Below are positions 14,779 through 49,140 of a stretch of DNA of 59,673 bases, in pieces (the stretch's first letter is position 1; every line of letters starts with the position of its first letter). The notes under the pieces are model-generated. The model made no database searches and had not been told where the DNA came from. It worked only from the letters and a program-made list of their open reading frames with translations. Source of the stretch: Candidatus Nanosyncoccus sp. (GTDB lineage Bacteria > Patescibacteriota > Saccharimonadia > Saccharimonadales > Saccharimonadaceae); the NCBI GenBank assembly GCA_045545815.1, contig JAZQBP010000008.1:1-59673 (forward strand). The letters run 5' to 3'. The position numbers and the translations under genes were made by a program.

Positions 14779-14786
14779 CTTTGATT

Positions 14787-14819: not shown

Positions 14820-14919
14820 TGAGAAGGCGAAAGTGTGGCGTGACGACGCTCAACGATTAATGAGGTCTCCGGCACTTAAAGCTTCACGAATATCAAATTA
14901 ATTGCAAAGGAGAAACGCA

Positions 14920-15009
14920 ATGGCAAAGAATATCAAAGTTAAGAAGATAGGTAGTAAGGCTAAAAAAATTCAGATCAGAATCCTGTCGCTACAGAACAGT
15001 CTGGCTTAG
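14920..15009 (+). CDS. 29-aa basic leader peptide (first early gene)
   Basis: AAGGAG RBS, MAKNIKVKKIGSKAKKIQIRILSLQNSLA*, stop overlaps next RBS. Confidence 0.55.
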   Translation: MAKNIKVKKIGSKAKKIQIRILSLQNSLA

Positions 15010-15016
15010 GAGGAGT

Positions 15017-15616
15017 ATGGCTAAGACTACTAAAGTAACGAAGATCGAGAAGCGATACAAGACGAAAGATGGTCAAGTAAAGACTCTCGAAATCAATTAT
15101 GCAAAGGTTGCAGACCGTTTGAATGAATTCCGTTCTGCTAATCCTCGCTCAAAGATTTCGGTTAAGTTCGCTTATAACGACAAAGGCGATCTCACCCATC
15201 ATGCGTACATTTGGAAAGACAAAACCGACTTCTATGACCTACTCAAATCTGGCGTAAGCGCAAAAGAGTCGCTTGAATCTGCGGACGCAGAAGGTTCTTC
15301 GTTGATGTATGCAGATAAAGTTAAGCAGGAAAAAGGTTTCGAGAAGAACGAAACGATTGCAATCGGTCGTGCTTTGGCAATACTCGGATATGCTGGTTCT
15401 GGCGAAATCGCATCAAGCGAAGAAATGGAAGAGTTCGAAGACTTCAAAAAGCAGAAAGTTGAAGATGCAAAAGCTGAGGCAATAAGCCAGCTCGCAAAGG
15501 CTAAGGATATGAAAGCTTTGTTGAAAGTTTGGCAAAGTCTCACTAAAGAGCAACAACTCGCAAAAGAAGTCCAAGCGAAAAAGAACGAGATGAAGGAGAT
15601 ATTTAATGCAAAATAA
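15017..15616 (+). CDS. Phage protein, probable single-strand annealing recombinase
   Basis: YAKVADRL...ETIAIGRALAILGY...ASSEEM pattern; sits upstream of YqaJ exonuclease and SSB. Confidence 0.55.
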   Translation: MAKTTKVTKIEKRYKTKDGQVKTLEINYAKVADRLNEFRSANPRSKISVKFAYNDKGDLTHHAYIWKDKTDFYDLLKSGVSAKESLESADAEGSSLMYADKVKQEKGFEKNETIAIGRALAILGYAGSGEIASSEEMEEFEDFKKQKVEDAKAEAISQLAKAKDMKALLKVWQSLTKEQQLAKEVQAKKNEMKEIFNAK

Positions 15617-15893
15617 AATTCCTAACGATTTCCTCGATTGCTGTATCGATAGTGAAACAGGCGAGGTTTACGATTCAGACTCAATTACCGAAGCTGTTCT
15701 TATAGAAACTGCTGAACTTGGTGATTTTGTTAACAGTGTCGTCTTCAGTGCGGTAAAAGCCGTAGTTGAGACTTATGTAGTTCCTGAAGCCGAAGAGTAT
15801 GCGAAAGACTATTTTGAGCCATCAGCTCGTGAAGAGGCAATGGCTGATATTCGTCGAGAAACGATGGAAAGGATAAAAAATGAAAGTTATTAA
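15606..15893 (+). CDS. Hypothetical acidic phage protein
   Basis: ORF with AGGAG RBS, overlaps both neighbours. Confidence 0.65.
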   Translation: MQNKIPNDFLDCCIDSETGEVYDSDSITEAVLIETAELGDFVNSVVFSAVKAVVETYVVPEAEEYAKDYFEPSAREEAMADIRRETMERIKNESY

Positions 15894-16671
15894 GCTACAG
15901 CAAAACTCGGATGAATGGCTAGAGTTTCGTAAAGGCAAGTCTGGTGGGTCAGAGTTCAAGAATCTTTGGATACCAGGTCTTCCATTAAAAGCAAAAATAA
16001 TTGAAAGACTCGAACAGGAAAATCCTTTATCGCCAGAGGATAAAAGATGTACCGTTCAAGAGCTTGCAGGGATGCTTGAGCCGAGTGAGCTTGCGGAACT
16101 CAAGTTAGAAGCTGAGCCAAAGAAACATTTTTATGAAATTGTTGCAGATCGTGTTGCTCGTCCTGTAACCCCAAATGACTACGAAGATAGATTAAATGGA
16201 GAACCGTTTACGATGATGGCTCGTGGTCACATTTTGGAACCTGAAGCCCTTAACGCTTTCGAAAACAGAACTGGGAAAAAACTCGATAAGGATTCTGTGG
16301 TATGGGTATCTGATTATGATCCGAACGCATATGTAAGCCCAGATGGCGCAATTACCGATAAGGATGGAAAAGTTCGAGAGGCTTGTGAGGTTAAATGCCT
16401 CTCCTCTGCCGAAGTTATTAAATGTTTTGACGAGAATCGTTATCCAAAAGACTACGAACCACAAGTTCTTAAGTATTTCATGGTCAATGAGGATCTGAAA
16501 ACACTCCATTTCATTATTTATACCGACCTTATTCCAGGACTAGAACTTCAGATATTCGATATTAACCGTAAAGATGTCGAAGAGAGATTGGCTGAGGCGA
16601 GAGCATTCGAGAAGGCGAGCCTCAAACGAATCGATGAACTTGCATCAAAAATTGAAGGATTAAGTTTCTGA
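15880..16671 (+). CDS. YqaJ-like (lambda Exo family) exonuclease
   Basis: QNSDEWLEFR, RGHILEPEA, SPDG, EVKC motifs. Confidence 0.85.
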   Translation: MKVIKLQQNSDEWLEFRKGKSGGSEFKNLWIPGLPLKAKIIERLEQENPLSPEDKRCTVQELAGMLEPSELAELKLEAEPKKHFYEIVADRVARPVTPNDYEDRLNGEPFTMMARGHILEPEALNAFENRTGKKLDKDSVVWVSDYDPNAYVSPDGAITDKDGKVREACEVKCLSSAEVIKCFDENRYPKDYEPQVLKYFMVNEDLKTLHFIIYTDLIPGLELQIFDINRKDVEERLAEARAFEKASLKRIDELASKIEGLSF

Positions 16672-16883
16672 TGAGTGACGGAAATCATAAAGGCAAAGGA
16701 CATGGAAAAGGAGGATTTGCTTCACAAAGAATAGGTAGCGATGGTCTAACCGGTCAACAACGAGCTAGGCTGGCAGGTCTAAAAGGTGCAATAGCTCATT
16801 CAATAAAAGTCTACGGACATTCAGAGGAGGAATACGAAGAACTATGGCAGAAAAAAGTGTCTTCAATAAAATCGGAACATTAA
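16671..16883 (+). CDS. Small KGG-repeat-like protein
   Basis: GKGGFAS...ARLAGLKG motif. Confidence 0.55.
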   Translation: MSDGNHKGKGHGKGGFASQRIGSDGLTGQQRARLAGLKGAIAHSIKVYGHSEEEYEELWQKKVSSIKSEH

Positions 16884-17122
16884 AAGTTAAGAACGGCACA
16901 TATAAGAAAGATGGCGTCGAGAAGAACAGTTATCACGAGGTAGGTGTTCTTCTCTCCTCGCCACATGGCTCAAGGCTTCTGATTAAGCTTCATGCAACTG
17001 CTACGACGGAACCGAAACTTATCTCGGTTTTCTACGACGAAGGAGTTGGTTTGAGTCTAAACAGAAGCGAGCCAGAAAGAGAGGGGGATGTCGTTCCGAG
17101 TCCGGATGAAATTCCTTTCTAG
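16844..17122 (+). CDS. Putative single-stranded DNA-binding protein
   Basis: Short beta-rich ORF ending in the SSB-type acidic tip DEIPF. Confidence 0.65.
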   Translation: MAEKSVFNKIGTLKVKNGTYKKDGVEKNSYHEVGVLLSSPHGSRLLIKLHATATTEPKLISVFYDEGVGLSLNRSEPEREGDVVPSPDEIPF

Positions 17123-17129
17123 TTAATCA

Positions 17130-17346
17130 TCGGCTCTTTAACATTGATGGACTGGTTACTTGCGCAATGCGCTATTGATAAGGTCACACAAAATTGCCTA
17201 GTAACTTGATTCGTGGCTGGAAGAGTTAGCATAAGTGTTCGTAATTCAATGTTCAATATTTTCTCTTCTTTATATGTAGCCAGCCCATCTATGTTCGAGA
17301 GTCGACTTTGGTTGTTATCTACTAATGAGCTGTCGTTGGTAGATAA
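17130..17346 (+). ncRNA. Putative structured RNA (long stem enclosing ~115 nt, then a 14-bp hairpin)
   Basis: 17130-17159 pairs with 17276-17305; 17315-17328 pairs with 17333-17346. Confidence 0.45.
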
Positions 17347-17382
17347 GAGCTAAAGCTCTAACAAGTAATAAAGGAGGTAATA

Positions 17383-17571
17383 ATGAACGACAAACTTGGG
17401 GGTGCTATGACAAATGAGCAATGGGAGCGTATTCGTGATGAGCTGGAAATCATCAAGAATACAGCAGATTACGGCATCGATTGCGTCGATAGCTTGTGTG
17501 AGCTTAAGGAGATCATGGCAGATATTAAACGAAGCTATGGAATTATCTTGCATATAACCAATGAAAAATAA
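17383..17571 (+). CDS. Hypothetical phage protein
   Basis: Strong AAGGAGGT RBS, 62 aa. Confidence 0.6.
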   Translation: MNDKLGGAMTNEQWERIRDELEIIKNTADYGIDCVDSLCELKEIMADIKRSYGIILHITNEK

Positions 17572-17688
17572 GTATGGCAACAGAATAAACTTCTGTCTCT
17601 CGGTCTGCCGGTAATTTAGCCATTGCATAACTCCACACTTATTCTTTGTTTTACCGGCAGCCCAAGGGTTCTTTCTATGGAGGTAAAT

Positions 17689-17967
17689 ATGAAAGTTAAT
17701 ACGAATGATATGAGGCATAAGATTCTGGACGCAGTGCGATTACATCCAGAAGCAGTCAATAGTGACAAATTATTAATCTCGCTTATATGGGAGAAGGAGG
17801 GTTGGACTTACAATAAAGGAATCCTCTGGAATCTGCATCATGTGTCGAGTCCTGAGACCATTCGCCGAACTCGCCAAAAACTAGTTGAAGAAGGGTTAAT
17901 TAAACCATGCGAGGAAACGACCGAGGCACGGTACGAAGATTTTAAGCAAGCAAGGATGGTGCTATGA
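17689..17967 (+). CDS. Hypothetical phage protein (possible winged helix)
   Basis: GGAGGT RBS; SPETIRRTRQKLVEEGLI helix motif; coupled to next gene. Confidence 0.6.
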   Translation: MKVNTNDMRHKILDAVRLHPEAVNSDKLLISLIWEKEGWTYNKGILWNLHHVSSPETIRRTRQKLVEEGLIKPCEETTEARYEDFKQARMVL

Positions 17968-19127
17968 GCGAGTCGCTAAAAGTCCTTGAATTGTTTGCTG
18001 GAATTGGCGCTTGTTCGAAAGCTCTAGATCGCTTAAAAATACCACATACAATAGTTGATGCCGTCGAGATTGATAAGTATGCGATTAGAAGCTTTAATGC
18101 TATCCACGGTACGAGTTTTGAGCCACAGGATATTACTAAATGGGATAAAGATGTTAGTGCCGATCTTATTATGCATGGATCGCCGTGCCAGGATTTTTCT
18201 GTTGCCGGTAGACAAGCAGGTGGCGATGAAGGCAGTGGCACTCGTTCGAGCTTGATGTATGAAACGCTTCGAATTGTAGACAAACTACATCCTAAATATG
18301 TTATCTGGGAGAATGTCAAGAATCTGCTTTCTAAGAAACATCGACATAATTTCGACGCCTATATTGAATCAATGAAGCGACTTGGATATATTAATTCGTT
18401 CCAAATTCTCAATGCAAAAGACTATGGAATTCCTCAGAACCGTGAGCGTGTATTTACGGTAAGCATCCGTGAGGATATTTGGGATAAAGCGTATAATAAT
18501 TTCAATCAATTTAATTTTCCGAAACCTATAGAGCTAAAAAGAAAGCCCAAAGATATACTTGAAGACGAAGTTGACGAAAAATACTTTATTTCCGAAAACA
18601 TGATGAATTACTTTATGGGCGTGAATCAGAAACCCAGTAAATTTCCACGCAAAGAAAGATTTATAGCGAATATTAATCGTAAAGATCAAGATCGTGCCAA
18701 CTCGATTACTACTGCGCCTGGGCAAAGACCAACGGACAACTTCGTAAAGGTTAATATGAAAACGGTTTTATGCAACAAACTTGTAAAAGAGAGTATTGTA
18801 AAAGGCGGTGAAATAATTAATCACTCATATACTACAAGCAAACAGCGAGATACTCTCGATAAATACATAGAGAGCGACGATGGTATTATGCCTACTATGA
18901 CTACTAGACCTGACTGCTTAGGTTATGCAACTCTCCCTCCAGACGTAAGAATCCGTAAATTAACACCAAAAGAATGTTGGAGGCTGATGGGATTCGATGA
19001 CGCCGACCTGGAAAAAGCACAAGCTTCTGGGGTCTCGAATGCACAGCTCTACAAGCAGGCTGGCAATTCTATCGTGGTTGATGTTCTTGTTGCTATTTTC
19101 GAAGAGTTATTATTGGGGAGAGTTTAG
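17964..19127 (+). CDS. Solitary phage C5-cytosine DNA methyltransferase
   Basis: ELFAGIG, GSPCQDFS, ENV, QNRER, YKQAGNS. Confidence 0.93.
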   Translation: MSESLKVLELFAGIGACSKALDRLKIPHTIVDAVEIDKYAIRSFNAIHGTSFEPQDITKWDKDVSADLIMHGSPCQDFSVAGRQAGGDEGSGTRSSLMYETLRIVDKLHPKYVIWENVKNLLSKKHRHNFDAYIESMKRLGYINSFQILNAKDYGIPQNRERVFTVSIREDIWDKAYNNFNQFNFPKPIELKRKPKDILEDEVDEKYFISENMMNYFMGVNQKPSKFPRKERFIANINRKDQDRANSITTAPGQRPTDNFVKVNMKTVLCNKLVKESIVKGGEIINHSYTTSKQRDTLDKYIESDDGIMPTMTTRPDCLGYATLPPDVRIRKLTPKECWRLMGFDDADLEKAQASGVSNAQLYKQAGNSIVVDVLVAIFEELLLGRV

Positions 19128-19766
19128 GCTTATACCTGTTTTTGTAAAACCGCCATCAAGTGCCTTGTAGAGGTAGCGAGCAACTATGGAAGAGTATGGT
19201 TTCCACTTTTCTGAATCCGCTATTAGCTCTGCTTTATCTCGTGTACCGGACATCCATTCGTAGCCTTGCAAAAAAGCAACATCTTCGACCGGCAAGATAT
19301 TTTGTCTATCAAGAACAAATATAAGATACATTTTTGCAGACCAATCTCCAATGCCCCTAATTTTTTTTAATTCCTTTATTGCATCGTCATCGCTCAAGTT
19401 GTTAATTTTTTTCAAATCGATGCTTCCATCTAGAATACCATCCGTAAAGCTTCTAATATAACCTAACTTCTGGGCAGATACGCCTGCATTTCGTATTTCT
19501 TCGTCAAATAATAAATTAATGTTGTCTGGGCATACATTATCGTTGCATAATGACTCAATGCGTTTGTAAATCGTAGCAGAGGCTTTGTTTGATAACATTT
19601 GACCAATAAATGTTGAAATAAAAAAAATATAATCATCCGAATAAAGCGAATACTCTATATCTCCGATTTTTCGACATATTAAGTCAAATCTTTTGTCTTT
19701 TTTCCGGATATGATCCACTCTTTTGTCGTTTATAGACAATAATTTATGACCGTTTCTCAGACTCAT
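19110..19766 (-). CDS. AlkA-family (HhH-GPD) DNA-3-methyladenine glycosylase
   Basis: IGQMLS, LKKIRGIGDWSAKMYLIF HhH motif, LPVED, WKPYSS. Confidence 0.88.
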   Translation of the reverse strand: MSLRNGHKLLSINDKRVDHIRKKDKRFDLICRKIGDIEYSLYSDDYIFFISTFIGQMLSNKASATIYKRIESLCNDNVCPDNINLLFDEEIRNAGVSAQKLGYIRSFTDGILDGSIDLKKINNLSDDDAIKELKKIRGIGDWSAKMYLIFVLDRQNILPVEDVAFLQGYEWMSGTRDKAELIADSEKWKPYSSIVARYLYKALDGGFTKTGISLNSPQ

Positions 19767-20506
19767 ATTTTTAACTCTGATATTTTATGCATCGACCCTG
19801 ATTGTATGTAATAATTGTCGGCATCCATGGGTGTTGTGCCGTTCAACATATCACCCTTGCGAATTATATGATTATTTCGAATTATCTCTATTAACTCATC
19901 GTTAGTTACAAATCCGGCTATATCATATTTCCAGTCTTGTCCTAATAATATCTCCTCTAGCCTTGCTTTTTCTATTGTATCTGTATATAGGAGTCGGCTT
20001 TTTCTTAATATGTCTTCGCAATACGGATCCATCCTGATCAAAAATGTAAAATCGTATGATTTATCATTCGGTAAATATCTTCCGTTGTTATCCCAGTCTT
20101 TCGTTTCTAGCAGAAGCAGGTTTCCGAAAGCCTTTGTTGACTTAATTGAGATAGACTTTCCTTTTACTTCAATGTCGACATCATCCCATTTTCCTAACTC
20201 ATATACGCTAAAGTCTGGATAGGATGGTTCATAGCCAATTCTGACTAATTCGTTGTAGAGTGCGCACTCTGCAAGCTTGCCTTGAAATGTGTTTGCAAAA
20301 ATCTCACCATTGCGCCTAATATGAGTTCCGCCACTTCGATGATTTCTATGCTCGCCAGATCCAGCAAAAGTCATATTGTAAGAGAAATCCAAAACCTTAA
20401 TAATTGTGGCTTGTTTTAGGTTGCCAATCGGAGAAAAAGGTCTTTTCGAATTTATAAATAGCCCGTTGGCTTTTCTGTCCATTTCCAAGAATAAATCAGT
20501 TGCCAT
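19763..20506 (-). CDS. Putative PD-(D/E)xK endonuclease
   Basis: GKLAE...WDDVDI...SIKS pattern; cotranscribed with R-M genes. Confidence 0.55.
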   Translation of the reverse strand: MATDLFLEMDRKANGLFINSKRPFSPIGNLKQATIIKVLDFSYNMTFAGSGEHRNHRSGGTHIRRNGEIFANTFQGKLAECALYNELVRIGYEPSYPDFSVYELGKWDDVDIEVKGKSISIKSTKAFGNLLLLETKDWDNNGRYLPNDKSYDFTFLIRMDPYCEDILRKSRLLYTDTIEKARLEEILLGQDWKYDIAGFVTNDELIEIIRNNHIIRKGDMLNGTTPMDADNYYIQSGSMHKISELKI

Positions 20507-20524
20507 GGGTCAAGTATCCTTAAA

Positions 20525-21076
20525 TTAGACTAAATGTATCGTCTTGTCTGGCGTATAGCCATTTTTTTCAATGATTTCTTTTTTGATCGAAAAACGAGGA
20601 CGGCGTCCTTGCCTTTGTTGATCCGCAAAGGTTTCATTTTTGCTAGCACACAAAACTATATTGCGCACGTCTTCTTTAATTTCATAAATATCAACTTGAC
20701 CATCTACTGTGCCGTTTGGGCAAAAATCCATAAAGAAGAGTTTATCCCATGTTGAATGAGGCCCAAATGAAGTGAGGTCATTAACAATGGATGTAGATTT
20801 CACCTGAACGCCAGATCCATCCGCAACATCGACTGCATCATAAGAGCCAGCACCAGCTTCATTTCCGTTGGTGCGAATAGCATCATAACAATAACAATAA
20901 AGAGCCTCAGACACTACATCTGGAACATTCAGTGTTCTGCCATTAAGTGCCTTGAGGTCTTTATTGATTGCTAGCCATTTTTGAAAGATGTTTTTTATTT
21001 TTTCGAAATCGGTCTCATCAAAGTAATCACCGATTGCGGTTGCACCTGATTTGAGTTTTACTTCTAGTTTTCTCAT
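20525..21076 (-). CDS. Bsp6I-family type II restriction endonuclease
   Basis: RTLNVPDVVSE, YDA..QVKS, DLTSFGP, DQQRQGRRPRFSI recalled as the Bsp6I family; adjacent C5 MTase. Confidence 0.8.
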   Translation of the reverse strand: MRKLEVKLKSGATAIGDYFDETDFEKIKNIFQKWLAINKDLKALNGRTLNVPDVVSEALYCYCYDAIRTNGNEAGAGSYDAVDVADGSGVQVKSTSIVNDLTSFGPHSTWDKLFFMDFCPNGTVDGQVDIYEIKEDVRNIVLCASKNETFADQQRQGRRPRFSIKKEIIEKNGYTPDKTIHLV

Positions 21077-21143
21077 AATACATCTGCCTTATATTATGAA
21101 GTCAATTATACCAGCAGATGCATATTTTGAACAGGTCTGACAG

Positions 21144-22091
21144 CTAGGAGTCGAGAGCCTTTTTAATGTTTTTGGCAATCCTTGCAATTACCGGCACTGA
21201 GACTGAGTTGCCAGCTTGCTTGTATAGTGCAGCATCCGAAATCTTCGGAAGCTGATAGTCCTTAGGAAAGCCCTGGACACTAAAGCACTCTCTTGGAGTA
21301 AGTTTGCGAATCCCTTTACCATCAAATATGATCGGAACATTATGTCCGCCAGTACCCATGTTGGCTGTCAGCGTAGGGCATACGCCACTCTTATTACGGC
21401 GAACATACTGTCTGCGCCATTGATATACTTCACCTTGCTCTGTAATTTCGTCCTTAATTCTGTCGTAAAGTGGCTTACCGTTATAATAGTATTTTTCTGG
21501 GATTTCGCCGGTTTCGAGAATATCCGTTATGTTTACGGTTCTTTCAATAGGTTTTGGAAATTCGAACTTGTCTAGCTTTTCTTTATCTTTGAAGCCGACA
21601 ATATAGATACGCTCACGATTCTGCGGAACATTGCCATATTCCATAGAGTTTAGAACTTCAGCTTTGATATGATAACCGAGGTTTTCGAGTGTCTCTTTAA
21701 TTACTTTGAAAGTATTACCACCGTCATGGCTCTTGAGGTTCTTAACATTCTCAAGCATAAAGCCAACAGGTTGCTTTTCTTTGATAATTCTAGCTACATC
21801 TAAGAATAGGTTTCCTCTACCTTTCTCATCATCAAAGCCTTTACGATAACCGGCGATCGAGAAAGCCTGACAAGGAAAGCCACCAACCACAAAGTCACAA
21901 TCAGGAATGTCCTTCTCGTTTACTTTAGTTATATCTGCTACTGTTAGGGCATCTTTGCCAAAGTTTAGGTCGTATGTATTGGCGCACTTTGGCTCGAAAT
22001 CGTTCGCCCAAACAGTCTTGAATCCTGCTTGTTCGAAGCCGAGTCTGATGCCACCAACACCTGCGAACAGGTCTATGGTTCTTATGGGCAT
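21144..22091 (-). CDS. Cognate C5-cytosine methyltransferase of the R-M system
   Basis: DLFAGVGG, GFPCQAFS, ENV, QNRER, YKQAGNS. Confidence 0.93.
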   Translation of the reverse strand: MPIRTIDLFAGVGGIRLGFEQAGFKTVWANDFEPKCANTYDLNFGKDALTVADITKVNEKDIPDCDFVVGGFPCQAFSIAGYRKGFDDEKGRGNLFLDVARIIKEKQPVGFMLENVKNLKSHDGGNTFKVIKETLENLGYHIKAEVLNSMEYGNVPQNRERIYIVGFKDKEKLDKFEFPKPIERTVNITDILETGEIPEKYYYNGKPLYDRIKDEITEQGEVYQWRRQYVRRNKSGVCPTLTANMGTGGHNVPIIFDGKGIRKLTPRECFSVQGFPKDYQLPKISDAALYKQAGNSVSVPVIARIAKNIKKALDS

Positions 22092-26225: not shown

Positions 26226-28568
26226 ATGAGTTGGGTTACAGTAGCATCAATTGATACAGGTGGATATGGTTACACTAGATTGCAATATGACGACGCTTCT
26301 ACTGGCGAAAGCCGTAGTTCAAGGGTTATTTTTGAGCTTAAGCCTGGTGCTAGTATCTATGTCTATTTCAATAATTTTACTGTTAATGGTACGAATCTTG
26401 GGCAGAAAACGGTTTCTGGAAACTGCACTTTATGGACTGGTTCGTTGCCGGCTGGTAATAGAACAGTTTCGTATACATGTCCTTGGTATTCTGGATCGGT
26501 GAACTATTCCGGAACTGGCTATATCCCAAGTGGATATTCGAACCCTACTGGTCTATCCGTTTCGATTGCTAGTAAGACATATAATTCGGCGTCTTTTAAT
26601 GTGTCCGTGTCGTCCTATGGAACTCCAAGCTCTGCAAATGGTCGTTATATTGAGGCTGCAATTCTTAATAGTAGTAGCTATGGAAATCCGTATCGTTATG
26701 CAACGGCGTCAAATACTACATCGTCTAAGATTACTGTCAATAATAGTTCTGCGCAAGGTTCTACTGCATTTACGATTACTGGAAACACAACATATCACTA
26801 TGGTGCATATGCGAGCAATACTCAAAGAAGTATTAGTACCGTTGCTGGTACATTTACAACATTATGCCCACCACTCTCTGCTCTTACATTCTCAAGCCAA
26901 TCCTATAGGACATACAACACGGTCAACGCAGTAATCAACTGGACTCGTCAGACCGATGGTGGTGCTTTGGCGAGAACTCTTAATTATAGATACTCTACCG
27001 ATGGTGGTTCAACTTATACTGCTTGGACTTCGGCTGGTACTGTTACGGCTACAAGTAGCTCATTTACTGTTTCTGGAATCCCAACCAGTAAGACCGTTAT
27101 TCTTGAAGCCAAATTGACAACAACTGCCGGCGACTCGACAGCTAAAACAGTTACCTTCACCACAAAAACAACCCATACAGCACCCAACTTTAGTAATTTC
27201 GAATATGCCGATACGAATAGCAGTACGATTGCATTGACTGGCGATAATACGACTCTGATTCAAGGTCAATCGACGCCTGTCGTTACAGTATCGACAAATA
27301 ATAAAGCTACTGGAAACGATGGTGTGGCGATATCTAATTATGCCATTTCTTTTAGTGGCAACTCTTATACGCTTGGATATTCTTCTTCTAGCGCAGTATC
27401 TCAGACATTGTCGGCACCAAGTCAAAATGGCACGCTCGCATTAAAAGTGTCTGCCGTCGATGAGCTATCTCTATCTACTGCAGTTTCTAAGGACGTAACC
27501 GTATATCCTTGGTCTGCGCCTACTGTTGTAGCGAGCGTAGAAAGAACTAATGGATTCGAGGCTGAGACGACATTAAAAGTTCATGGTACATACGCACCGA
27601 TTATCGTTAATAATACGGCTAAGAATACAGTTACGGTTCAATTCCGTACAAAGAAATCTTCGGAATCTAACTGGGGGAATTGGCAGACTAGATCGAATAC
27701 CAAATCTGGTAGCAACTGGTCTATCCAAGATTATGTAATTACATTGGACAACAATTATCAATGGGATATTCAAGTTAAAGCTACTGATAAGTTTTCATCT
27801 ACTGTTGTTGACCTTATACTAACCGTTGGTATTCCGAAATTCTTTATTGGCGAAGATGGCAGATGTTCAGTTGGTAGAAAGCCACAAGTCGATAAAGGTC
27901 AGAATAATGGTCAATTAGAGGTCGAAGGAGACATAATCTCCTCTGGTAGTGTGTATGCACATAATACAGCAAAGCTCTTAGAGGAGAACGAATTAGGTGG
28001 GCTGTTACCAAATATCTTTTTGCAAAAAATCTATCCTATTGGTTCAATTTATCGAAGTACGACGAATAAATCACCACAACAGTTTCTTGGTGGCACTTGG
28101 ACTCTTGAGTGGTCTGGCAAAGAATATATTGAAGTAGCCTCACAAGTCTTATATTATGGTTCGACTAGGAGTGGCTCAGGAACAACTAAGGTAATCGGCG
28201 CATATCAGTATAGCTTGATTGATGGTATTTTCGATAAAGCACCAACTATGCCATCTAGCTTTCATCAAGAATACCAGTTGTCTGGTCAAGTATCGTCGAG
28301 TGGATCTAATAGTGTAAGAATAAGATTGAATAACATACAAACCGACAATAAAGGAACATGGTCTTCTGATACTTTTAGGCAAATTGTTAAATCAAATTTC
28401 TTCAAGAAAGAAGATATTACTTTAGAAACGACTTTAGGGTATAGTAATCCTGGCATAAATCTGGGTGTAGTAAACGATGGAAATGGCGATGCGAGGATGT
28501 GGTCTGCTACGATTCACGGCTTCTATGTAAGCAATAATACATATTATATCTGGAGAAGAACAGCTTAA
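26226..28568 (+). CDS. Tail fibre/receptor-binding protein (currently fused to cassette A)
   Basis: Ser/Thr-rich beta repeats; C-terminal YPIGSIY...GGTW...YIWRRTA module. Confidence 0.8.
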   Translation: MSWVTVASIDTGGYGYTRLQYDDASTGESRSSRVIFELKPGASIYVYFNNFTVNGTNLGQKTVSGNCTLWTGSLPAGNRTVSYTCPWYSGSVNYSGTGYIPSGYSNPTGLSVSIASKTYNSASFNVSVSSYGTPSSANGRYIEAAILNSSSYGNPYRYATASNTTSSKITVNNSSAQGSTAFTITGNTTYHYGAYASNTQRSISTVAGTFTTLCPPLSALTFSSQSYRTYNTVNAVINWTRQTDGGALARTLNYRYSTDGGSTYTAWTSAGTVTATSSSFTVSGIPTSKTVILEAKLTTTAGDSTAKTVTFTTKTTHTAPNFSNFEYADTNSSTIALTGDNTTLIQGQSTPVVTVSTNNKATGNDGVAISNYAISFSGNSYTLGYSSSSAVSQTLSAPSQNGTLALKVSAVDELSLSTAVSKDVTVYPWSAPTVVASVERTNGFEAETTLKVHGTYAPIIVNNTAKNTVTVQFRTKKSSESNWGNWQTRSNTKSGSNWSIQDYVITLDNNYQWDIQVKATDKFSSTVVDLILTVGIPKFFIGEDGRCSVGRKPQVDKGQNNGQLEVEGDIISSGSVYAHNTAKLLEENELGGLLPNIFLQKIYPIGSIYRSTTNKSPQQFLGGTWTLEWSGKEYIEVASQVLYYGSTRSGSGTTKVIGAYQYSLIDGIFDKAPTMPSSFHQEYQLSGQVSSSGSNSVRIRLNNIQTDNKGTWSSDTFRQIVKSNFFKKEDITLETTLGYSNPGINLGVVNDGNGDARMWSATIHGFYVSNNTYYIWRRTA
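27955..27977. repeat. Outer inverted repeat, left (perfect 23 bp)
   Basis: ATGCACATAATACAGCAAAGCTC; exact reverse complement at 29201-29223. Confidence 0.95.
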
Positions 28569-28788: not shown

Positions 28789-29223
28789 TTCTACGCCACA
28801 TATAAACTGTTAGGTATGGAGGCATATTTTGGTGTGCCTCTCCGTTTCCGGACGACTGTACAGTAAATGGTGGTGAGTATGTCTCTCCATAGAATGTGCC
28901 ACCTCCGTTTCCAGCCGATGTGCCACTAGTATTGTTGTATGGCACACCATAGGGTACTTTCTTTTCTAGACCATGAGAATGGCTCGGCATTTGCTTAACC
29001 GTCAATACTACGGTCTTACTACCTCCACTCTTATTTGATGCATTGAAATCTGTATCGTTAGGATCGACGCCAACAGGCACTTTGCCAGCGCCCCAAGCTT
29101 GCCATGTGCCTCCGAGGAAAGATTGTGGCGAAACATTATTTACGCTCATGTAAATTGAGCCTACTGGATAGACGTAAGTAAGTAAATCGCTCTTCGAGAT
29201 GAGCTTTGCTGTATTATGTGCAT
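28781..29223 (-). other. Silent inverted tail-fibre C-terminal cassette B
   Basis: AHNTAKLISKSDLLTYVYPVGSIY...YMWRRIS*; starts in the outer repeat in the same reading phase (AHNTAKL) as the fibre gene. Confidence 0.85.
29201..29223. repeat. Outer inverted repeat, right
   Basis: GAGCTTTGCTGTATTATGTGCAT. Confidence 0.95.
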
Positions 29224-29294: not shown

Positions 29295-32200
29295 TTAAGC
29301 TTTTTTCTGAGCATCTCTCATCTGCTCAATCTCGCTACGAGAGATCTTGCCCAAGAAATATTTCTCAATAAAATCCCATCTTGCGATATCCGCATGAAGC
29401 TCTGTGAAGAAGTGTTGCATTAAAATACAAGATTCACTATGCTTCCTAGCAACATTGGCTACGGTACGGCTTACATAATCTGCATTGTTAATGACTTTTT
29501 CTATTGCGTATGCGTTGTTTACACGAATGAAGAACTCTGGGTTTTCTCCGGCTGTCGTAGTGCATCTAGCTAATTCAAGCATTTCGATTAGTTGAACTAC
29601 GATAATATCAGTACTCTCTTTCGAGCTTACATAACGAGAAGCTTTATGTCTGTCGCCGAAGATAAAATGATTAATTGCATATTTGAGGTTCTTAATCCTA
29701 GGCTCATAGGACACCGTCTTAATAATTGTTTTATCATACTTAGAGTTATACTCGGAGAAGTTATTTTGGAATAGTGAATTTCGGTAAGGTGCAATTCTCT
29801 CTAGCATGGGTATGAAAGCACCGGCAACAACATCTGCGATATACTTCTTTTTAACACATCCTTTCTTGATAAGAATTTGAGCAAGCTCGCTTGATGAGAA
29901 AAACTTGTTTGATTGTTTAAGGTCGGCAAAAATATCCTCCATAGTATCCAAGAATGAGAAGAGGTCGTCTCTAACGCTATTCAATGAACGCTTCCCGGCA
30001 TCGACTTCGAGAATAATTCTATTAATGATCTTCTCTCCGACTTTGAAATTAAAATCTTTTAATTCGTTAGTAAAGAATAGATGCTTAAACATACTGAACG
30101 ATATGTCACGATAATGGTGTTCCCAAAGCGATTTATAATCGAGCTGATAAATATCGCCAGGTACAGTTACAATTGCGTCGCTCGCCCTGCTTGACTTAGT
30201 TGCCTCAGTATATGTCCTTGGGAGATCAAGTTTCTTGAAATATTTCATATACCCAAATTGTTTGAGGCCCGGTATCATCTCGTCGTTAACCATGAAATAA
30301 CCAAGAGTAAACATACTTCGTGGCTTAAATACGACTGGAGGATAATTTGAATGAGGATCAGATTCGAAATCTTTCCTGATCATCAATAGCGTAGTTTTTA
30401 TCTTAGCATCAAGATCTTCTGGTCTTGCATCCGCAAAAATAAACGAAAAATCTTCTGGCGATACCAAGAAGTTACGCTTCCCATATGTATTATAAAGCTG
30501 ATGGATCTTTCGGAGCGTAGCTACAACCTGCCAGTTCTTGATACTCGACATACCATATAGCTGGCGGATATAGCGAAAATCTTCCTTAAAGAAATCCGTA
30601 CTTGCGACACCGATCATATCCGGTCTACGAGCCGCGCGTCCGATTTCTTGTACATAGTCAGCAATGTTGCCAGTTGGGGCGAAGTGGTAGACATATTTGA
30701 TATCGTCAATATCAATACCCATGCCAAATGCTTTCGTGGCAATAACAACATTTTTGGTGCCTTCACTAATACATTTCAATGTCTCATTCTTCTCGCCGGC
30801 AGCAAGACCGCCATAATATCTTCCTGCTTTTTCTGGATTATCCATGCGATGTAATAAATCATCGACATGCTTCGTGTATGGAACATAGACAAGAGTCTTA
30901 TCGCCGGTTTCGCATAGTTTATTAATTGAGTCTGTAGCTTTTTCTAGTTTTTCATTTTGGTAGTCGTGATCCTTATTGTGGCAACGAATATCGAAATTAA
31001 TATCCTCACGCCTCACATTGCCTATATATTTGTTTGGCGTCATTTTGAGGGATTCGATAATGTCGTGATACATATTATCTTCTCCACCAAATGTAGAAGT
31101 TGCGGTAAATGTAACGATTGGGAACTTATAGTCTGATTTTGCATTGTTCCTGAGACGGTTGATAAAATCGCCAAGATACCAATAATCAGGTCTGAAACTC
31201 TTACCCCATGTCGCTACAATATGTGCTTCGTCGACAACTATTAATCCGATATTCCTTTCACCAATTAGGCTAGTAATATCAGTATTTGAGAGTAGTGCCT
31301 CTGGCGACAGATAAAGGATAGACTTATCGCCCTTTTTAATTGATTCAAGAGTATTCTCCTTTTCCGTAGGTGTGTAATCGGAGTTAATTGTGGCAGCTAG
31401 GTGAGTCATGGACTTTATATTTTGTACTTGATCATTCATCAAGCCAATGAGAGGGGATATAACCAATGTCACGAGATTATATTTTTCTGCTAGATAAATT
31501 GCAGGGATTTGAAACATGACGGATTTGCCAGCGCCAGTCGGTGCGGTTACAAAGACATCCCTAAATGGCTCAAGATCTTTTGCTTTGATGGCGTTCTGAA
31601 CGATATCGTCAATAATTACAGACTGTTCAACATCGACAAGCTCATTGTCGTCGTATGGATTCTTGTACAACTTGAGGGTTCTGAATGAATAATCAGGATT
31701 CTTACGGTGTAAAATATCGAGATATTCTTTATAGAAGTCAGGATTAACTTTATTACCGCCGGCAGAATATGACCGACTAATCATCTTGACGCCTGCTCTT
31801 TCTAATTTGTCTTTCAGGGCGATAATGTTCTTATCTGTCTGAAGGCTATCGTCGAGTACGCTAATTTTACCTATGCCATTCTCTATTACGCTTGTAAGAA
31901 CATCCGATAAAACAATAAGATCATACTCGTCAGGAATAACAGCGACCTCTTCATTTGAATCTTCTACTAGGCTACCATCTATGAGCTTTGATATTTGGAC
32001 AGTTTCAAAATTTGTGTTTCCGTAAGTAATTGGGATGTCGTTATAGGCAATGTAGACATTTTCGTTATACTCCTCTATATCACCGTAAAGCTGTTGAATA
32101 TACAGATCCCTTTCGGCATCATGTTTTGTTTTTAGGTCTTCGTATTCTTCTAGGCTAAAACTGCTTGGATAGAATGTAGTATAGAAATCATTATCGAGAA

Positions 32201-32477
32201 TATAGATATGTTTTCCCGATGCGGCAAAAATACCCCCAAGAGACATCTCAGAAAGAGCTACCAAGTCCTCGTAAGTGACAAATAATGTATCATTATGTTT
32301 TACTATTTCTGATAAAAGATCGGTCACATCAGGTTTTTCTATCTTAATCTCTTTCGAAAAAAGAAAATTGCCGGATAACTCCGACAACCATTTGTTAAAA
32401 CCTTTCAAGACAACGATCGTATTAGGATCAGAAATAGAATTAATCTGTTTTACGATGAGTTGCTTAAGTGTTTCCAT
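29295..32477 (-). CDS. RecQ-like DEAH helicase with long N- and C-terminal extensions (moron)
   Basis: APTGAGKS, SPLIGLMNDQ, VDEAH, WGKSFRPDY, ATKAFGMGID, QEIGRAAR; own TGTTATAAT just upstream. Confidence 0.88.
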   Translation of the reverse strand: METLKQLIVKQINSISDPNTIVVLKGFNKWLSELSGNFLFSKEIKIEKPDVTDLLSEIVKHNDTLFVTYEDLVALSEMSLGGIFAASGKHIYILDNDFYTTFYPSSFSLEEYEDLKTKHDAERDLYIQQLYGDIEEYNENVYIAYNDIPITYGNTNFETVQISKLIDGSLVEDSNEEVAVIPDEYDLIVLSDVLTSVIENGIGKISVLDDSLQTDKNIIALKDKLERAGVKMISRSYSAGGNKVNPDFYKEYLDILHRKNPDYSFRTLKLYKNPYDDNELVDVEQSVIIDDIVQNAIKAKDLEPFRDVFVTAPTGAGKSVMFQIPAIYLAEKYNLVTLVISPLIGLMNDQVQNIKSMTHLAATINSDYTPTEKENTLESIKKGDKSILYLSPEALLSNTDITSLIGERNIGLIVVDEAHIVATWGKSFRPDYWYLGDFINRLRNNAKSDYKFPIVTFTATSTFGGEDNMYHDIIESLKMTPNKYIGNVRREDINFDIRCHNKDHDYQNEKLEKATDSINKLCETGDKTLVYVPYTKHVDDLLHRMDNPEKAGRYYGGLAAGEKNETLKCISEGTKNVVIATKAFGMGIDIDDIKYVYHFAPTGNIADYVQEIGRAARRPDMIGVASTDFFKEDFRYIRQLYGMSSIKNWQVVATLRKIHQLYNTYGKRNFLVSPEDFSFIFADARPEDLDAKIKTTLLMIRKDFESDPHSNYPPVVFKPRSMFTLGYFMVNDEMIPGLKQFGYMKYFKKLDLPRTYTEATKSSRASDAIVTVPGDIYQLDYKSLWEHHYRDISFSMFKHLFFTNELKDFNFKVGEKIINRIILEVDAGKRSLNSVRDDLFSFLDTMEDIFADLKQSNKFFSSSELAQILIKKGCVKKKYIADVVAGAFIPMLERIAPYRNSLFQNNFSEYNSKYDKTIIKTVSYEPRIKNLKYAINHFIFGDRHKASRYVSSKESTDIIVVQLIEMLELARCTTTAGENPEFFIRVNNAYAIEKVINNADYVSRTVANVARKHSESCILMQHFFTELHADIARWDFIEKYFLGKISRSEIEQMRDAQKKA

Positions 32478-45612: not shown

Positions 45613-46089
45613 TTACTGTATTTTTCCGTACGATGCGCCACCAATCATAAGTGACCCATAATTGAAAGTGAAGTTATAGTCTGTAATATTGTCTTTCTTG
45701 ACTCCATTTTCCGTATAAGGATAGTTAATACTAAACTTACCACTCTTATTACCCTCATCATAAGTATAAGTGCAGTCTTGGCTTCTGTCGTTAAAATCAA
45801 CCGTAGTTGAAAGCTCGGTTTTTATAGCTTCGATGTACTTACAAGTGCCATCTTCTCTAAAAATAGCATATGAGTCTACGCTTTTATTGTAATTGTTGTA
45901 GTAAGAACGCTTATAAACACCTACGATTTTGGCATTCTGTACATAAGAGTCTTCAGAAGCTACCGGATGAAATTCATTTTTGGCGACATTATAGCCGATA
46001 AAGTAACTTCCAATTAGTAAACCAATGCCAACGACTGCCGAGACTATAGAAATAATTAGTGTTTTGTTCGAATTATTCTTTTTAGCCAT
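45613..46089 (-). CDS. Membrane-anchored protein with external beta domain (candidate superinfection exclusion)
   Basis: N-terminal TM helix, two Cys, own TGATATAAT; paralogue at 48318-48788. Confidence 0.7.
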   Translation of the reverse strand: MAKKNNSNKTLIISIVSAVVGIGLLIGSYFIGYNVAKNEFHPVASEDSYVQNAKIVGVYKRSYYNNYNKSVDSYAIFREDGTCKYIEAIKTELSTTVDFNDRSQDCTYTYDEGNKSGKFSINYPYTENGVKKDNITDYNFTFNYGSLMIGGASYGKIQ

Positions 46090-46152: not shown

Positions 46153-46181
46153 TTGACTAAAACAGTTATCTTTGATATAAT
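46153..46181 (+). promoter_or_regulatory. Consensus sigma70 promoter
   Basis: TTGACT-17 bp-TATAAT with extended TG. Confidence 0.85.
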
Positions 46182-46188
46182 TAGAACA

Positions 46189-46256
46189 GCAAATATGTTG
46201 GGATTTAAGCCTCATTGGCGATGTCGTTCGCCTTGAGGCTTTTTGTCTGTCACCTC
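46189..46256 (+). ncRNA. Putative trans-acting antisense RNA/attenuator
   Basis: Starts 7 nt after the -10; 5' 15 nt and 3' 9 nt complementary to 14799-14813 and 14787-14795; central hairpin. Confidence 0.65.
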
Positions 46257-46288
46257 GCTATACGGCAAATAACGGAGGTACGATTTTC

Positions 46289-46564
46289 GTGGAAATCAAA
46301 TTCCTGAAAGTTGAGTTTGAGCTTATGACGAGATATGGCGTAGATACTGCCATCTTTGTTTCATATCTTAAGTTTGTTGAACGCAACCGTCCGAAGGACG
46401 ATTATGGCTACTTCTGTTTTGATTCTAACTATGCGTTGAAGGTTCTTCCGTATGGTCTGACTAAATTCAAGCAAGTTAGGAAACAAGCTGTTGAAGCGAA
46501 ACTTATAGACTATATTCCAGGGAATAATCAGAATATAAAGCCTAGATATAGAATCGCAAAATAG
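46289..46564 (+). CDS. Small winged-helix protein resembling phage replication-initiator N-termini
   Basis: GGAGGT RBS; GYF...L...GLT...KLI...PRYRI pattern; precedes ori-like repeats. Confidence 0.55.
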   Translation: MEIKFLKVEFELMTRYGVDTAIFVSYLKFVERNRPKDDYGYFCFDSNYALKVLPYGLTKFKQVRKQAVEAKLIDYIPGNNQNIKPRYRIAK

Positions 46565-46629: not shown

Positions 46630-46749
46630 TGTGGAAAACTACCCCATTTTCTGTGGATAACTATGCGAAAAAGTCTGTGGAAATGTCTTTTCGCTGGTCA
46701 TATTACGACCACCGGATAACAGAGGTGCGCTGGTCGTAATGCGACCACC
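46630..46749. other. Putative phage replication origin
   Basis: DnaA-box-like TGTGGAAAA, TGTGGATAA (perfect), TGTGGAAAT, then two palindromic 22-bp direct repeats at 46692 and 46728. Confidence 0.6.
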
Positions 46750-46814
46750 CATACAAAAGGAAATAAAACTAATAGTAATAGGCTACTACGGCTAATTATT
46801 TGAAAGGATTATTC

Positions 46815-47720
46815 ATGAACAACTATTCAAAGTTTAAGAATCAGCACCTACCTGACTATTCATATATCGAGCATCGTGGGAATGCACCAATCTATGACCA
46901 AGCAAACCAATATCTAAGGTATTGCTCTGTGACGAGACAAATGAGTCCAATGACAATAAGAAGCAAACAGTCAGCCTTGCGAAATCTGATTGTCGAAAGT
47001 AAGTGCAGAGATTTGCAAGAACTGACTAATGCAGATTATGACAGATTTGTTCAATGCGAACTAGATAGAAAAGTTTGTTGTAGGACAATTAACACGAAAA
47101 CGGCACATATTGTTGCTTTCATTAAGTATTGGAAGGAGCTTGATATGAAGATTCCGATCAGGATTCCGCTCATCGTTAAACTCAAGGAACAGCCACCCCG
47201 CAGGGCTTGTTATACGAGACAAGAAATCGAAGAAGTCTTGGATAATTGTAACTCTGACATACAATGGCTTTTGATTAAGATCGCATTCGATACTGGCATG
47301 AGAATCAACGAATTAAGGAATCTGAGCCTCTCGCAGATACATGGAAGGCGAATCAATTTCATCGGCAAAGGAACTAAAGAACGAGAGGTTTACTTGACCG
47401 TTGCTGCAAATGAACGGCTTCTTGAATACATTGAGAAGCATCCAGAAATCGAAGATCGCATTTGGATGAATGAATGGGGTTATCCTATGTCAGTAGACAC
47501 GATCCGTAGAATCATGAGAGAAGCTTTTGTTCGTTGTGGACATGATGATTTCTATCCTCACGCACTACGACATAGCTTTGGTTCTGATATTCAAAAACAA
47601 GGTGCAGATATTTTTGTAATCAAGGAAATGATGGGACACTCAAATATCGCAACGACTCAAAAATATCTACATAGTCTCGATGGGCAATTAGCCAACTTGT
47701 TTGATATGTATAAGCGCTAA
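46815..47720 (+). CDS. Tyrosine integrase/recombinase
   Basis: TGMRINE (R), GKG (K), HALRH, MGHS, TQKY; ~290 bp from attR. Confidence 0.93.
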   Translation: MNNYSKFKNQHLPDYSYIEHRGNAPIYDQANQYLRYCSVTRQMSPMTIRSKQSALRNLIVESKCRDLQELTNADYDRFVQCELDRKVCCRTINTKTAHIVAFIKYWKELDMKIPIRIPLIVKLKEQPPRRACYTRQEIEEVLDNCNSDIQWLLIKIAFDTGMRINELRNLSLSQIHGRRINFIGKGTKEREVYLTVAANERLLEYIEKHPEIEDRIWMNEWGYPMSVDTIRRIMREAFVRCGHDDFYPHALRHSFGSDIQKQGADIFVIKEMMGHSNIATTQKYLHSLDGQLANLFDMYKR

Positions 47721-48011: not shown

Positions 48012-48068
48012 TAGAGCGCTTCCATGGCATGGAAGAGGTGAGGAGTTCGAACCTCCTGCACTCCACCA
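48012..48068 (+). pseudogene. 3' fragment of the interrupted tRNA-Ala(GGC); attR
   Basis: TAGAGCGCTTCCATGGCATGGAAG...GCACTCCACCA lacking its 5' 19 nt, which lie at 14541-14559. Confidence 0.9.
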
Positions 48069-48149
48069 ACCAAGAAAAATACTCATTGGAAACGATGGGA
48101 TTTTTGTTTTAAGCCAGTTTCGATAAGAAGCTAGCTTTTTTCTTTGATT

Positions 48150-48253
48150 GAGGCGATAAGACAAAAAACCTCACGGCGAACGACATCGCCATTGAGGCTT
48201 TTTTCCAACATATTGTCACTTATGATTATAGCAAATAACACCTTAAAAGTCAA
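48150..48253 (-). ncRNA. Second copy of the promoter + antisense RNA unit, outside the prophage
   Basis: TTGACT-17-TATAAT (48253-48225), AATATGTTGG seed, same GCCTCA..GGCGATGTCGTTCGCC..TGAGG hairpin. Confidence 0.65.
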
Positions 48254-48317: not shown

Positions 48318-48788
48318 ATGGCTAAGAAGAATGGTTCCAACACAAAGCTAATCATCTCCATAGTCTCTTCAATCGTGGGGATTGGTCTGCTAATCGGCAG
48401 CTATTTTATCGGCTACAATGTAGCAGAAAGCAAATATCAACCAGTCGCCGCTAGTGAAGAGCAATATAACAAAATTGTGGGAGTGTATAAGCGTTCCTAC
48501 TATAATAATTATAACAAGAGTGTCGACTCTTATGCAGTCTTGCGTGATGATGGCACTTGCTACTACATCGAATCTATCAGAACAGACCTCTCAACGACCG
48601 TAGACTTCAATGATAGAAGCCAAAACTGCAAATATACTTACGATGATGGCACGAAAAGCGGCAAGATCGAAATCACTTATGAGTACACTGTAAACGGACA
48701 AAATGAATCCAAAGTCCAACCAATGAACTTTACTTTTAACTATGGCTCACTAATAATTGGCGGTGCCTCATACGGTAGAATACAGTAG
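48318..48788 (+). CDS. Paralogue of prophage membrane protein 45613-46089
   Basis: Shared GIGLLIGSYFIGYNVA, KIVGVYKRSYYNNYNKSVDSYA, LSTTVDFNDRSQ, NFTFNYGSL. Confidence 0.85.
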   Translation: MAKKNGSNTKLIISIVSSIVGIGLLIGSYFIGYNVAESKYQPVAASEEQYNKIVGVYKRSYYNNYNKSVDSYAVLRDDGTCYYIESIRTDLSTTVDFNDRSQNCKYTYDDGTKSGKIEITYEYTVNGQNESKVQPMNFTFNYGSLIIGGASYGRIQ

Positions 48789-48820
48789 AAAGATTATGCT
48801 TAATATGATATAATACTAGT

Positions 48821-48882
48821 AGAGAGCTCCGCCAGCCCAAGGGATTTAATCCTGAGGAGGCCTCTGGAGTTCTCTGTTTTTT
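48821..48882 (+). ncRNA. Putative small structured RNA 1
   Basis: TGATATAAT promoter, AGAGAGCTCC/GGAGTTCTCT closing stem, T-run. Confidence 0.5.
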
Positions 48883-48913
48883 ATTAATTAAAAATATATG
48901 TTATAATATCAAT

Positions 48914-48976
48914 GGAAGCTCCCCCCGAATAGGGACTTTGTCCTGAAGTCGGCTCTTAACCGGAGCTTCTTTTTTT
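48914..48976 (+). ncRNA. Putative small structured RNA 2 (related to RNA 1)
   Basis: TGTTATAAT promoter, GGAAGCTCC/GGAGCTTCT stem, T-run, shared AGGGA-hairpin-TCCTGA. Confidence 0.5.
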
Positions 48977-49032
48977 GTGATATAATATTTGTATATGAAG
49001 TATAGATGTAGCAGATAAATCGTATAAACCGC

Positions 49033-49106
49033 GCCCCTGAATCGCGGATTCGATGCTCTGCTCTTCTAAAGCTAGGTTCCCAGTTCGACTCTGGGCAGGG
49101 GTACCA
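49033..49106 (+). tRNA. Atypical or degenerate tRNA-Arg(TCT)-like gene
   Basis: Paired acceptor GCCCCTG/CAGGGGT+ACCA, perfect T-arm, CTTCTAA loop; non-canonical D-arm and weak anticodon stem. Confidence 0.55.
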
Positions 49107-49140
49107 GAATTATTTTTTTAATAATTCATGATATAATATT

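Follow-up and report, generated by a model that had tools for sequence, protein, structure and literature searches.

The window, by which we mean the whole stretch of 59,673 nt (contig C8 of an 803-kb assembly, G000, that comprises 50 contigs and is 95.6% complete), contains a prophage in which promoter P1 is followed by a candidate small RNA (46189-46256, + strand) with complementarity to a hairpin (14787-14819, + strand) at the head of the early leader. The pairing of these two elements is very probably real and selected. We assign a probability of about 60% to the reading, drawn from sequence comparison, that the P1 RNA acts in trans as an antisense repressor of the early leader and determines immunity, likely with a reciprocal licensing of the rep-like and integrase genes.

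Complementarity of the P1 RNA and the early-leader hairpin

Promoter P1 (46153-46181, + strand) is of the sigma-70 type, matches the consensus at 11 of 12 positions with a 17-nt spacer, and precedes the small RNA, the rep-like gene and the integrase gene. It ended 7 nt ahead of the 5' block, and its -35 and -10 columns were conserved in 12 aligned relatives; the consensus promoter that an earlier note on this DNA had placed before the RNA was thus confirmed. Sequence and folds indicated that the candidate RNA consists of a single-stranded 5' seed, a central hairpin with a short U-tract, and a 3' block. The seed (46189-46203, + strand), which is the portion that differs between phages, is the exact reverse complement of 14799-14813, and the 3' block (46248-46256, + strand) is that of 14787-14795, with 3 bases separating the two targets, as the earlier note had claimed. 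The central hairpin and U-tract (46208-46244, + strand), a probable leaky terminator with conserved arms and a variable loop, folded at a z of -3.2, which was reached by 0 of 200 shuffles. Co-folding yielded the three-way junction that had been proposed, at about -26 kcal/mol net, and both hairpins folded as described. The distance of 31 kb given in the same note holds in the prophage only, because contigs in the attP form place the RNA and its target on either side of attP, which sets them about 2 kb apart in the circle.

The window holds nine exact inverted matches of at least 15 nt, about 1.7 being expected by simple arithmetic in 60 kb, and 13 of 20,000 random 15-mers from the prophage had a distant inverted copy. 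The 15-mer by itself is near chance, and the case therefore rests on position and covariation. Relatives were fetched with the integrase, the 199-aa early protein and the 91-aa protein, and both ends of the pair were required for a record to be counted. The pair was present in 20 phage or prophage records (this one and 19 others) with 15 seed types. In these records, the 12-27 nt that immediately follow the rep/integrase operon promoter were complementary to the hairpin that comes next after the final att-side terminator of the early leader, and in all 20 the block began within about 2 nt of the predicted start site. The two-site pairing round a hairpin, which the earlier note had likened to C4 and P4 CI RNAs, was found in the window's clade of 12 only (this window, L002, L003, L006, L182, G502, G503, G507, G508, G542, G051, and G060), whereas at least seven distant phages (L007, L064, L075, L086, L093, L097, and G100) pair by a single contiguous block of 21-27 nt, and L013 by a bulged block.

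The cognate or same-seed target was the best for 16 of 16 RNAs (mean -21.7 kcal/mol, range -13.6 to -28.1), and the 220 non-cognate pairs had a mean of -5.0 kcal/mol (sd 3.6); because the pairs were chosen for matching, this 16-pair matrix shows specificity and not frequency. A prediction fixed before the leaders were viewed was correct for G508, where the 5' block was exact over 14 nt and the 3' core also matched, and for G507 it was correct apart from two differences, both of which were U-G wobbles. Blind scans found the partner at the promoter in G100 and in G542, G051, and G060, and in the latter three a change in the target 5' arm was mirrored by the 3' block. Imperfect positions in the homology-defined blocks of L003, L006, G507, and L182 comprised four G-U, no A-C, and one C-U when counted by eye; seven further G-U positions in L064, L093, and G100 came from a scan that rewarded G-U. 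This wobble polarity fits the pairing of two plus-strand RNAs rather than of DNA sites. Compensatory changes between RNA and target, to which the earlier note had pointed as a check, were evident in related prophages, with seeds that covary across 15 types. These comparisons strongly support RNA-RNA pairing.

No pair was found in L099 (a fragment), L107 (40,000 of 40,702 nt scanned), and L145 (in which the integrase is reversed). Thirteen records were uninformative, since ten had one end only (L001, L005, L017, L170, L171, L172/G053, L178, L180, L181, and G516) and three had too little upstream DNA (L073, L078, and L136). The ungapped scan missed the split pair of L002 and the bulged pair of L013, which came from other comparisons. 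BLAST of the RNA region against 151 relatives gave only two clear copies, both in G000. A sequence model, R1, had matches in 13 of 150 genus genomes, five of which were further such prophages and the rest of which, L199 and L200 aside, resembled plain promoters; over 61 loci it re-found L013 and L075 weakly. Chance complementarity or an assembly artefact, to which the expected number of inverted 15-mers and the division of the genome into 50 contigs might point, is refuted by the covariation, and its probability is close to nil: the pair recurred in 19 other records, the predictions came true, and contigs of run X2 covered the RNA region at high identity.

Prophage organization and a second RNA gene outside attR

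The siphovirus-type prophage extends from attL to attR. The 10-bp attL core (14560-14569, + strand) cuts off the 5' part of a host tRNA-Ala (14541-14569), and the identical attR core (48012-48021, + strand) is followed by the displaced 3' part of this tRNA, which runs to 48068. The attP form of the site was seen in contigs L002 and L003, and an empty attB contig was seen in run X1. A complete phage-borne replacement tRNA-Ala(GGC) (14619-14694, + strand), a 100% identical copy of which adjoins attP in L003, was the sole intact Ala(GGC) gene that ARAGORN detected in G000, as would be expected if lysogens depended on it for survival. In tRNA-dependent lysogeny, as PMC10865867 describes it, the host tRNA is cut at a 10-bp core and is replaced by a complete tRNA that the phage brings. 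Both sequence traits were present here, namely a core of about 10 bp within a host tRNA and an entire phage tRNA of matching isotype. The phage sequence just past attL (14541-14585) is able to base-pair with the severed 5' portion of the host tRNA and close an acceptor-like stem, which also occurred in G503, G507, and G508 and perhaps preserves the processing of the replacement tRNA. Elsewhere, about 27 tRNA genes were located within 2.6 kb near a similar prophage (L210 11074-13627; G053 contig C16), and a tRNA array resembling this one, with tmRNA, was found in L061/L122.

The tyrosine integrase (46800-47720, + strand; PF00589, E 3e-31) is followed by promoter P2 (47791-47819, + strand; 10 of 12 consensus positions). 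When the phage is circular, P2 points at the early genes and reads across attP, the tRNA, and the terminators that lie between. A promoter lay at most 85 nt from the integrase end in 13 of 15 attP-form loci. The circular order is P1, small RNA, rep-like gene, origin-like repeats, integrase, P2, attP, tRNA, terminators, target hairpin, and early genes. Integration carries P2 to the opposite end of the prophage, apart from the early genes, and leader RNA should therefore abound only from circular genomes. The leader of P2 (47920-47975) contains a hairpin and a boxA-like motif that were kept in many relatives (fold z of only -1.0) and that may aid read-through of T1/T2 in the circular phage.

The gene behind P1 encodes a 91-aa winged-helix protein (46289-46564, + strand; AlphaFold pLDDT 88) with the shape of the N-terminal DNA-binding domain of replication initiators (RepA_N-like). 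In Foldseek searches its top PDB matches were initiator/Rep structures (TM 0.73-0.75, E about 0.01), and its viral structure matches were replication proteins (E 4e-4 to 1e-3). Three DnaA-box-like repeats (46630-46685, + strand), one of them perfect against the DnaA box consensus, form a probable replication origin that was conserved in L001, L002, L003, and L006. Because the fold is initiator-like and these repeats follow it, P1 is best read as the promoter of a rep/origin/integrase operon. The closest relatives of the phage genes were in records of Candidatus Saccharibacteria or Nanosyncoccus, with the 91-aa protein being 98% identical in L168; the 91-aa and 199-aa proteins had no relatives among 50,697 GenBank phages.

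Divergent from P1, a gene for a 158-aa membrane-anchored protein (45613-46089, - strand) was absent in several relatives; its product had atlas matches below 0.9 only, was without an informative match in PHROGs, NCBIfam, and atlas searches, and is possibly an exclusion protein. Other features of the prophage were also recorded. Inverted repeats of 23 bp (27955-27977 and 29201-29223) flank an alternative C-terminal tail module with Gp10_C domains on both strands, which is probably an invertible tail-fibre segment, with no invertase seen nearby. A 13-bp motif with a -10 hexamer (at 22364, 39508, 39738, and 45561) precedes the lysis/tail and head operons and is likely a late-promoter signature; the lysis and tail genes are on the strand opposite to the head operon. 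Two C5 methyltransferases, a Bsp6I-type endonuclease, an HhH-GPD glycosylase, and a 1060-aa RecQ-like helicase (17964-22091 and 29295-32477) are possible defence cargo.

Outside attR, a remnant of the T1/T2 terminator region of another prophage (48082-48145, + strand; 84% identical to 14737-14796 over 61 nt and 89% to L003 over 81 nt) is joined straight to an inverted second promoter and small-RNA gene (48150-48253, - strand; R1 E 9e-18) of L003-type specificity. This copy was 77% identical to the first one over 107 nt and 91.5% identical to L003 over 106 nt. Its promoter is intact, and it is without a target hairpin, rep gene, or integrase. The orphan RNA was predicted to bind the L003 target at -31.1 kcal/mol and the resident target at -20.8 kcal/mol, the value for the resident RNA on its own target being -28.1 kcal/mol. 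A paralogue of the membrane-anchored protein (48318-48788, + strand) is divergent from the second RNA copy, and past it (48810-49110) are two more units of a promoter and a hairpin with a U-tract, as well as a tRNA-Arg-like 3' part, which are possibly further small RNAs and another att scar. An RNA-like unit with a hairpin and a 3' block, but without a nearby rep gene, SD, or integrase, was also seen in L199 (1530-1600; G076) and is a possible second orphan copy.

The junction in the remnant (48134-48253) is the expected product of recombination between the target 5' arm and the 3' block. We infer that an earlier L003-type prophage inverted, lost lytic control, and decayed, that its RNA gene survived, and that a phage with a different seed then entered its tRNA; the second copy is a single case and could be neutral debris. 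The same junction, together with the imperfect palindrome of the target, would be expected if the match were a DNA feature such as a pair of inverted recombination sites, an operator pair, or an inverted-duplication scar. This is extremely improbable, since the sequences are unrelated between phages yet still matched, the mismatches take the form of wobbles on one of the strand pairs, the match begins at a start site in every case and is interrupted by a hairpin or by bulges, and the inverted state occurred in 0 of 20 intact records. An inversion scar alone, which the earlier note had named as a possible source of the match, was thus rejected as its cause, yet the attR remnant indicates that the repeats recombined once.

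Structure of the early leader and the P1 leader

Terminators T1 (14706-14747, + strand) and T2 (14748-14783, + strand) precede the target hairpin, the 5' arm and loop of which would be bound by the small RNA. The hairpin folded at a z of -3.9, reached by 0 of 200 shuffles, and 98.8% of cells were paired in nine relatives, with two pairs changed on both sides. It forms the top of a longer outer helix, in which the U-tract of T2 doubles as strand A and a purine-rich run just past the hairpin (14823-14833, + strand) is strand B. Fold and alignment indicated that strand B can pair either with this U-tract or with 14883-14886 in a second stem. About 99% of cells in the outer helix were paired in the nine relatives, compared with 49-63% in slid registers, and the helix was re-formed with different letters in G542, L086, L075, and L013; its covariation was modest, with few two-sided changes and a score that was reached by 7 of 500 shuffles. 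In the G542 type the second stem is followed by a U-tract, an attenuator layout, and no U-tract follows in the window's clade. When the bound positions were blocked in the model, the outer helix lost at least 2 bp in 9 of the 18 leaders, stayed the same in 7, and gained in 2, including this window. Overall, a conserved two-state early leader is supported.

The target lies about 120 nt upstream of the first early SD, and no promoter was found over it on either strand. The early operon (14920-17967, + strand) consists of a 29-aa basic ORF, a 199-aa ORF that is termed SSAP by position only, a YqaJ-type exonuclease, and small ORFs. Modelled binding changed the first early SD inconsistently in nine leaders, which leaves unsupported a mechanism in which the RNA frees the U-tract to cover this SD. 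The motif after the target was also considered as a boxA and rejected, because in L075 it is a strand of the outer helix, and no host boxA reference was found. Longer early leaders with an extra hairpin and a conserved loop were seen in L002 (9260-9285), L006, L182, L185, and L186; this hairpin and most of the first ORF were lost in this window, G502, and G503. Close phages from oral sources (L013 8800-8860 and L017 1200-1250) had the same leader frame with other loops and a compensated outer helix, which suggests several immunity groups.

In the P1 leader, the 3' block sits 4-12 nt past the U-tract, and an RNA that terminated at the U-tract would therefore be without it. The core of the block is also able to pair in cis with the SD of the rep-like gene (46274-46279, + strand; invariant alignment columns), and this anti-SD helix was kept in 13 of 13 rows. 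Outside the core, the block tracked the target in L003 and in G542, whereas in L006, G508, and L182 it did so incompletely, and the conservation of the 3' block can be explained by the cis helix. No minus-strand promoter was found inside 46189-46290. The target 5' arm mimics the rep SD, and modelled binding of the leader opened this SD by more than 0.2 in 5 of 8 cases, with no opening in G503 and L002 and little in G508. Furthermore, the 5' arm of the P1 terminator lies within the paired block in L007, L013, and L075, and partly in L093, whereas in L086 and L097 the block stops before the terminator. Reciprocal activation of rep and integrase by the leader RNA is plausible from these models, and the aside in the earlier note that the pairing might also control the rep-like gene gained support from the anti-SD helix and the modelled SD opening.

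The same observations may be read in the reversed direction, in which the RNA of the early-leader hairpin would regulate the P1 leader by freeing the rep SD or by blocking the P1 terminator, the early genes would not be repressed by the pairing, and replication and integrase would be on only in the circular genome. The conserved anti-SD helix, the opening of the SD in five of eight models, the covered terminator arms, and the severing of P2 from the hairpin upon integration are all consistent with this direction. It is nevertheless unlikely, given the blocks that stop short of the terminator, the models in which the SD opened little or not at all, and the orphan P1 RNA gene that was retained beside attR without rep. 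An acting RNA usually has a free 5' seed at its start site, which is the shape of the P1 RNA.

Comparison with known switches and the proposed mechanism

The earlier note had recognised no CI/Cro-type repressor in the prophage, and searches of Pfam (59 ORFs), PHROGs (29 ORFs), and NCBIfam (20 ORFs) agreed; in these three databases the prophage ORFs also matched no S24 or anti-repressor family. In contrast to the lambdoid CI/Cro switch, no HTH_3/S24 repressor gene was found beside the integrase or the early promoter. Among related phage records, several of which are fragments, HTH_3 occurred in 1 of 13, about 15 kb from the integrase of that phage, and peptidase S24 in 0 of 5. The early operon encodes a second small winged-helix-like protein (17623-17967; 114 aa) with weak regulator matches in PHROGs, and this protein and the 91-aa protein (46289-46564) could be unrecognised repressors. 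One of them might be the main repressor, with a secondary pairing, like that of C4 in phage P1, that tunes it or an anti-repressor. Both are probable DNA binders, and the 91-aa gene lies behind P1 beside the integrase, a frequent location of repressors. On the other hand, the fold of the 91-aa protein is closest to replication initiators, origin-like repeats are next to its gene, and occlusion of its SD is predicted; at this position, more distant phages that have the RNA pair carry longer, different genes, and the 114-aa gene sits in the early operon. A protein as the main repressor is improbable on these grounds.

The arrangement also resembles the antisense control of plasmid rep genes by attenuation or translation (pT181, pIP501, and pSK41 types), in which cis-encoded, fully complementary RNAs bind a leader hairpin and flip mutually exclusive helices. 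The leader hairpin, the mutually exclusive helices, and the RepA_N-like gene are shared, whereas here the RNA and target are separate loci, both on the plus strand, with a coevolving complementarity of 12-27 nt, and no opposing cis promoter was found. Control of copy number or incompatibility acting on the replication initiator, with no role in lysis-lysogeny, would agree with the position of the RNA at the head of a rep operon with origin-like repeats, but it is very improbable: known countertranscripts are cis-encoded, the partner here heads the lytic operon on the other side of attP, and in L097 and G100 the interval from the RNA to the integrase contains no obvious rep ORF. RNA-based replication origins do exist in other prophages, as PMC7157519 reports, which would favour such a role.

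The candidate is not a member of the C4 or P4 CI family, with which the earlier note had compared it, since it has a different fold and no Rfam match: no C4 match was obtained in the window at the gathering score or in five loci at E values up to 5, and Rfam gave only tRNAs and sub-threshold noise. P4 is not known to have a protein repressor. Termination in P4 is Rho-dependent, whereas Rho was not found in G000 (95.6% complete), which has RNase III and NusB. The likeness to P4 CI (isrK/seqA relatives) is that a small phage RNA pairs with the leader of a lytic operon at two sites. As described in PMC4825925, the CI RNA is the immunity factor, pairs at two sites with the lytic/replication leader, and is processed from the leader that it controls, between seqA and seqC. 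In contrast, the RNA at 46189 has its own promoter in another operon, across attP from its target at 14787, and, compared with premature termination in P4, the two-state leader helices are present here and the modelling of the bound state was mixed.

According to PMC5320573, the C4 RNA of P1/P7 pairs at two sites, few changes in seed and target switch its specificity, and orphan copies occur in host genomes; PMC5320573 and PMC8198154 describe it as a three-stem RNA that is processed by RNase P, covers a ribosome-binding site in the anti-repressor operon, and plays a role secondary to that of protein C1. Pairing at two sites, with a specificity set by the seed, was likewise found in the window's clade, as was an orphan copy. 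However, the present RNA has a single hairpin, open 5' and 3' tails, and a 5' end at the predicted start site; its target precedes the first SD by about 120 nt, and neither an anti-repressor nor a CI family was found. In mycobacteriophage BPs, integration rewires the switch (PMC3694055) and alters a protein repressor, whereas here the early promoter is removed and the trans factor appears to be RNA. STnc6030 of the Salmonella prophage BTP1, a base-pairing RNA that confers phage-specific superinfection exclusion according to PMC7067206, differs in that it is encoded antisense in cis to late coding genes and operates alongside a CI repressor. The present pair may work like P4 CI and P1 C4 without their defining features, and there is a chance that it is a new kind of switch.

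Of the sRNA lysogeny switch that the earlier note proposed, the RNA-RNA pairing stands on covariation, wobbles, and successful predictions, and the pairing would, by inference, control immunity and lysogeny. Under the preferred reading of the P1 RNA as an antisense repressor, a lysogen would make abundant P1 RNA, the 5' end of which would nucleate on the target loop and invade the 5' arm. This invasion would open the long helix of the T2 U-tract and strand B, and early transcripts would then be stopped or cut, by attenuation or RNase III. An incoming phage with the same seed would be silenced and one with another seed would not, and seeds would therefore define immunity groups. The same pairing would take the 3' block off the rep SD, so that licensing of rep and integrase would require more leader RNA than free small RNA, an excess that would be expected after infection or excision. 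It is possible, but doubtful, that the whole lysis-lysogeny and immunity circuit is a mutual RNA-RNA toggle without a protein repressor, in which the P1 RNA would silence the lytic leader, this leader would unlock replication and integrase, and the loss of the early promoter on integration would set the balance and let the pair sense a circular genome, with rewritable seeds of 12-27 nt as immunity groups and orphan RNAs as heritable anti-phage guides kept by the host.

The literature searched, in which subscription journals and RNA-motif surveys or supplements were thinly covered, gave no description of antisense or structured RNAs of prophages from Saccharibacteria or the candidate phyla radiation (CPR), and the maintenance of lysogeny in temperate phages of Saccharibacteria-like bacteria was likewise undescribed there. 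Our comparisons indicate that the RNA-RNA regulatory pair is real, common to a group of probable CPR temperate phages, and previously uncatalogued. Immunity by RNA only is known mainly from the satellite phage P4. If the antisense reading is true, trans-encoded RNA immunity over 15 seed types would be a general strategy of full-size temperate phages in a lineage with reduced genomes, and immunity groups would be predictable from the seed sequence alone. The seeds would represent a natural set of largely orthogonal, apparently protein-free RNA switches, and the orphan copy next to attR hints at how a dead prophage may leave its host a phage-specific defence RNA.
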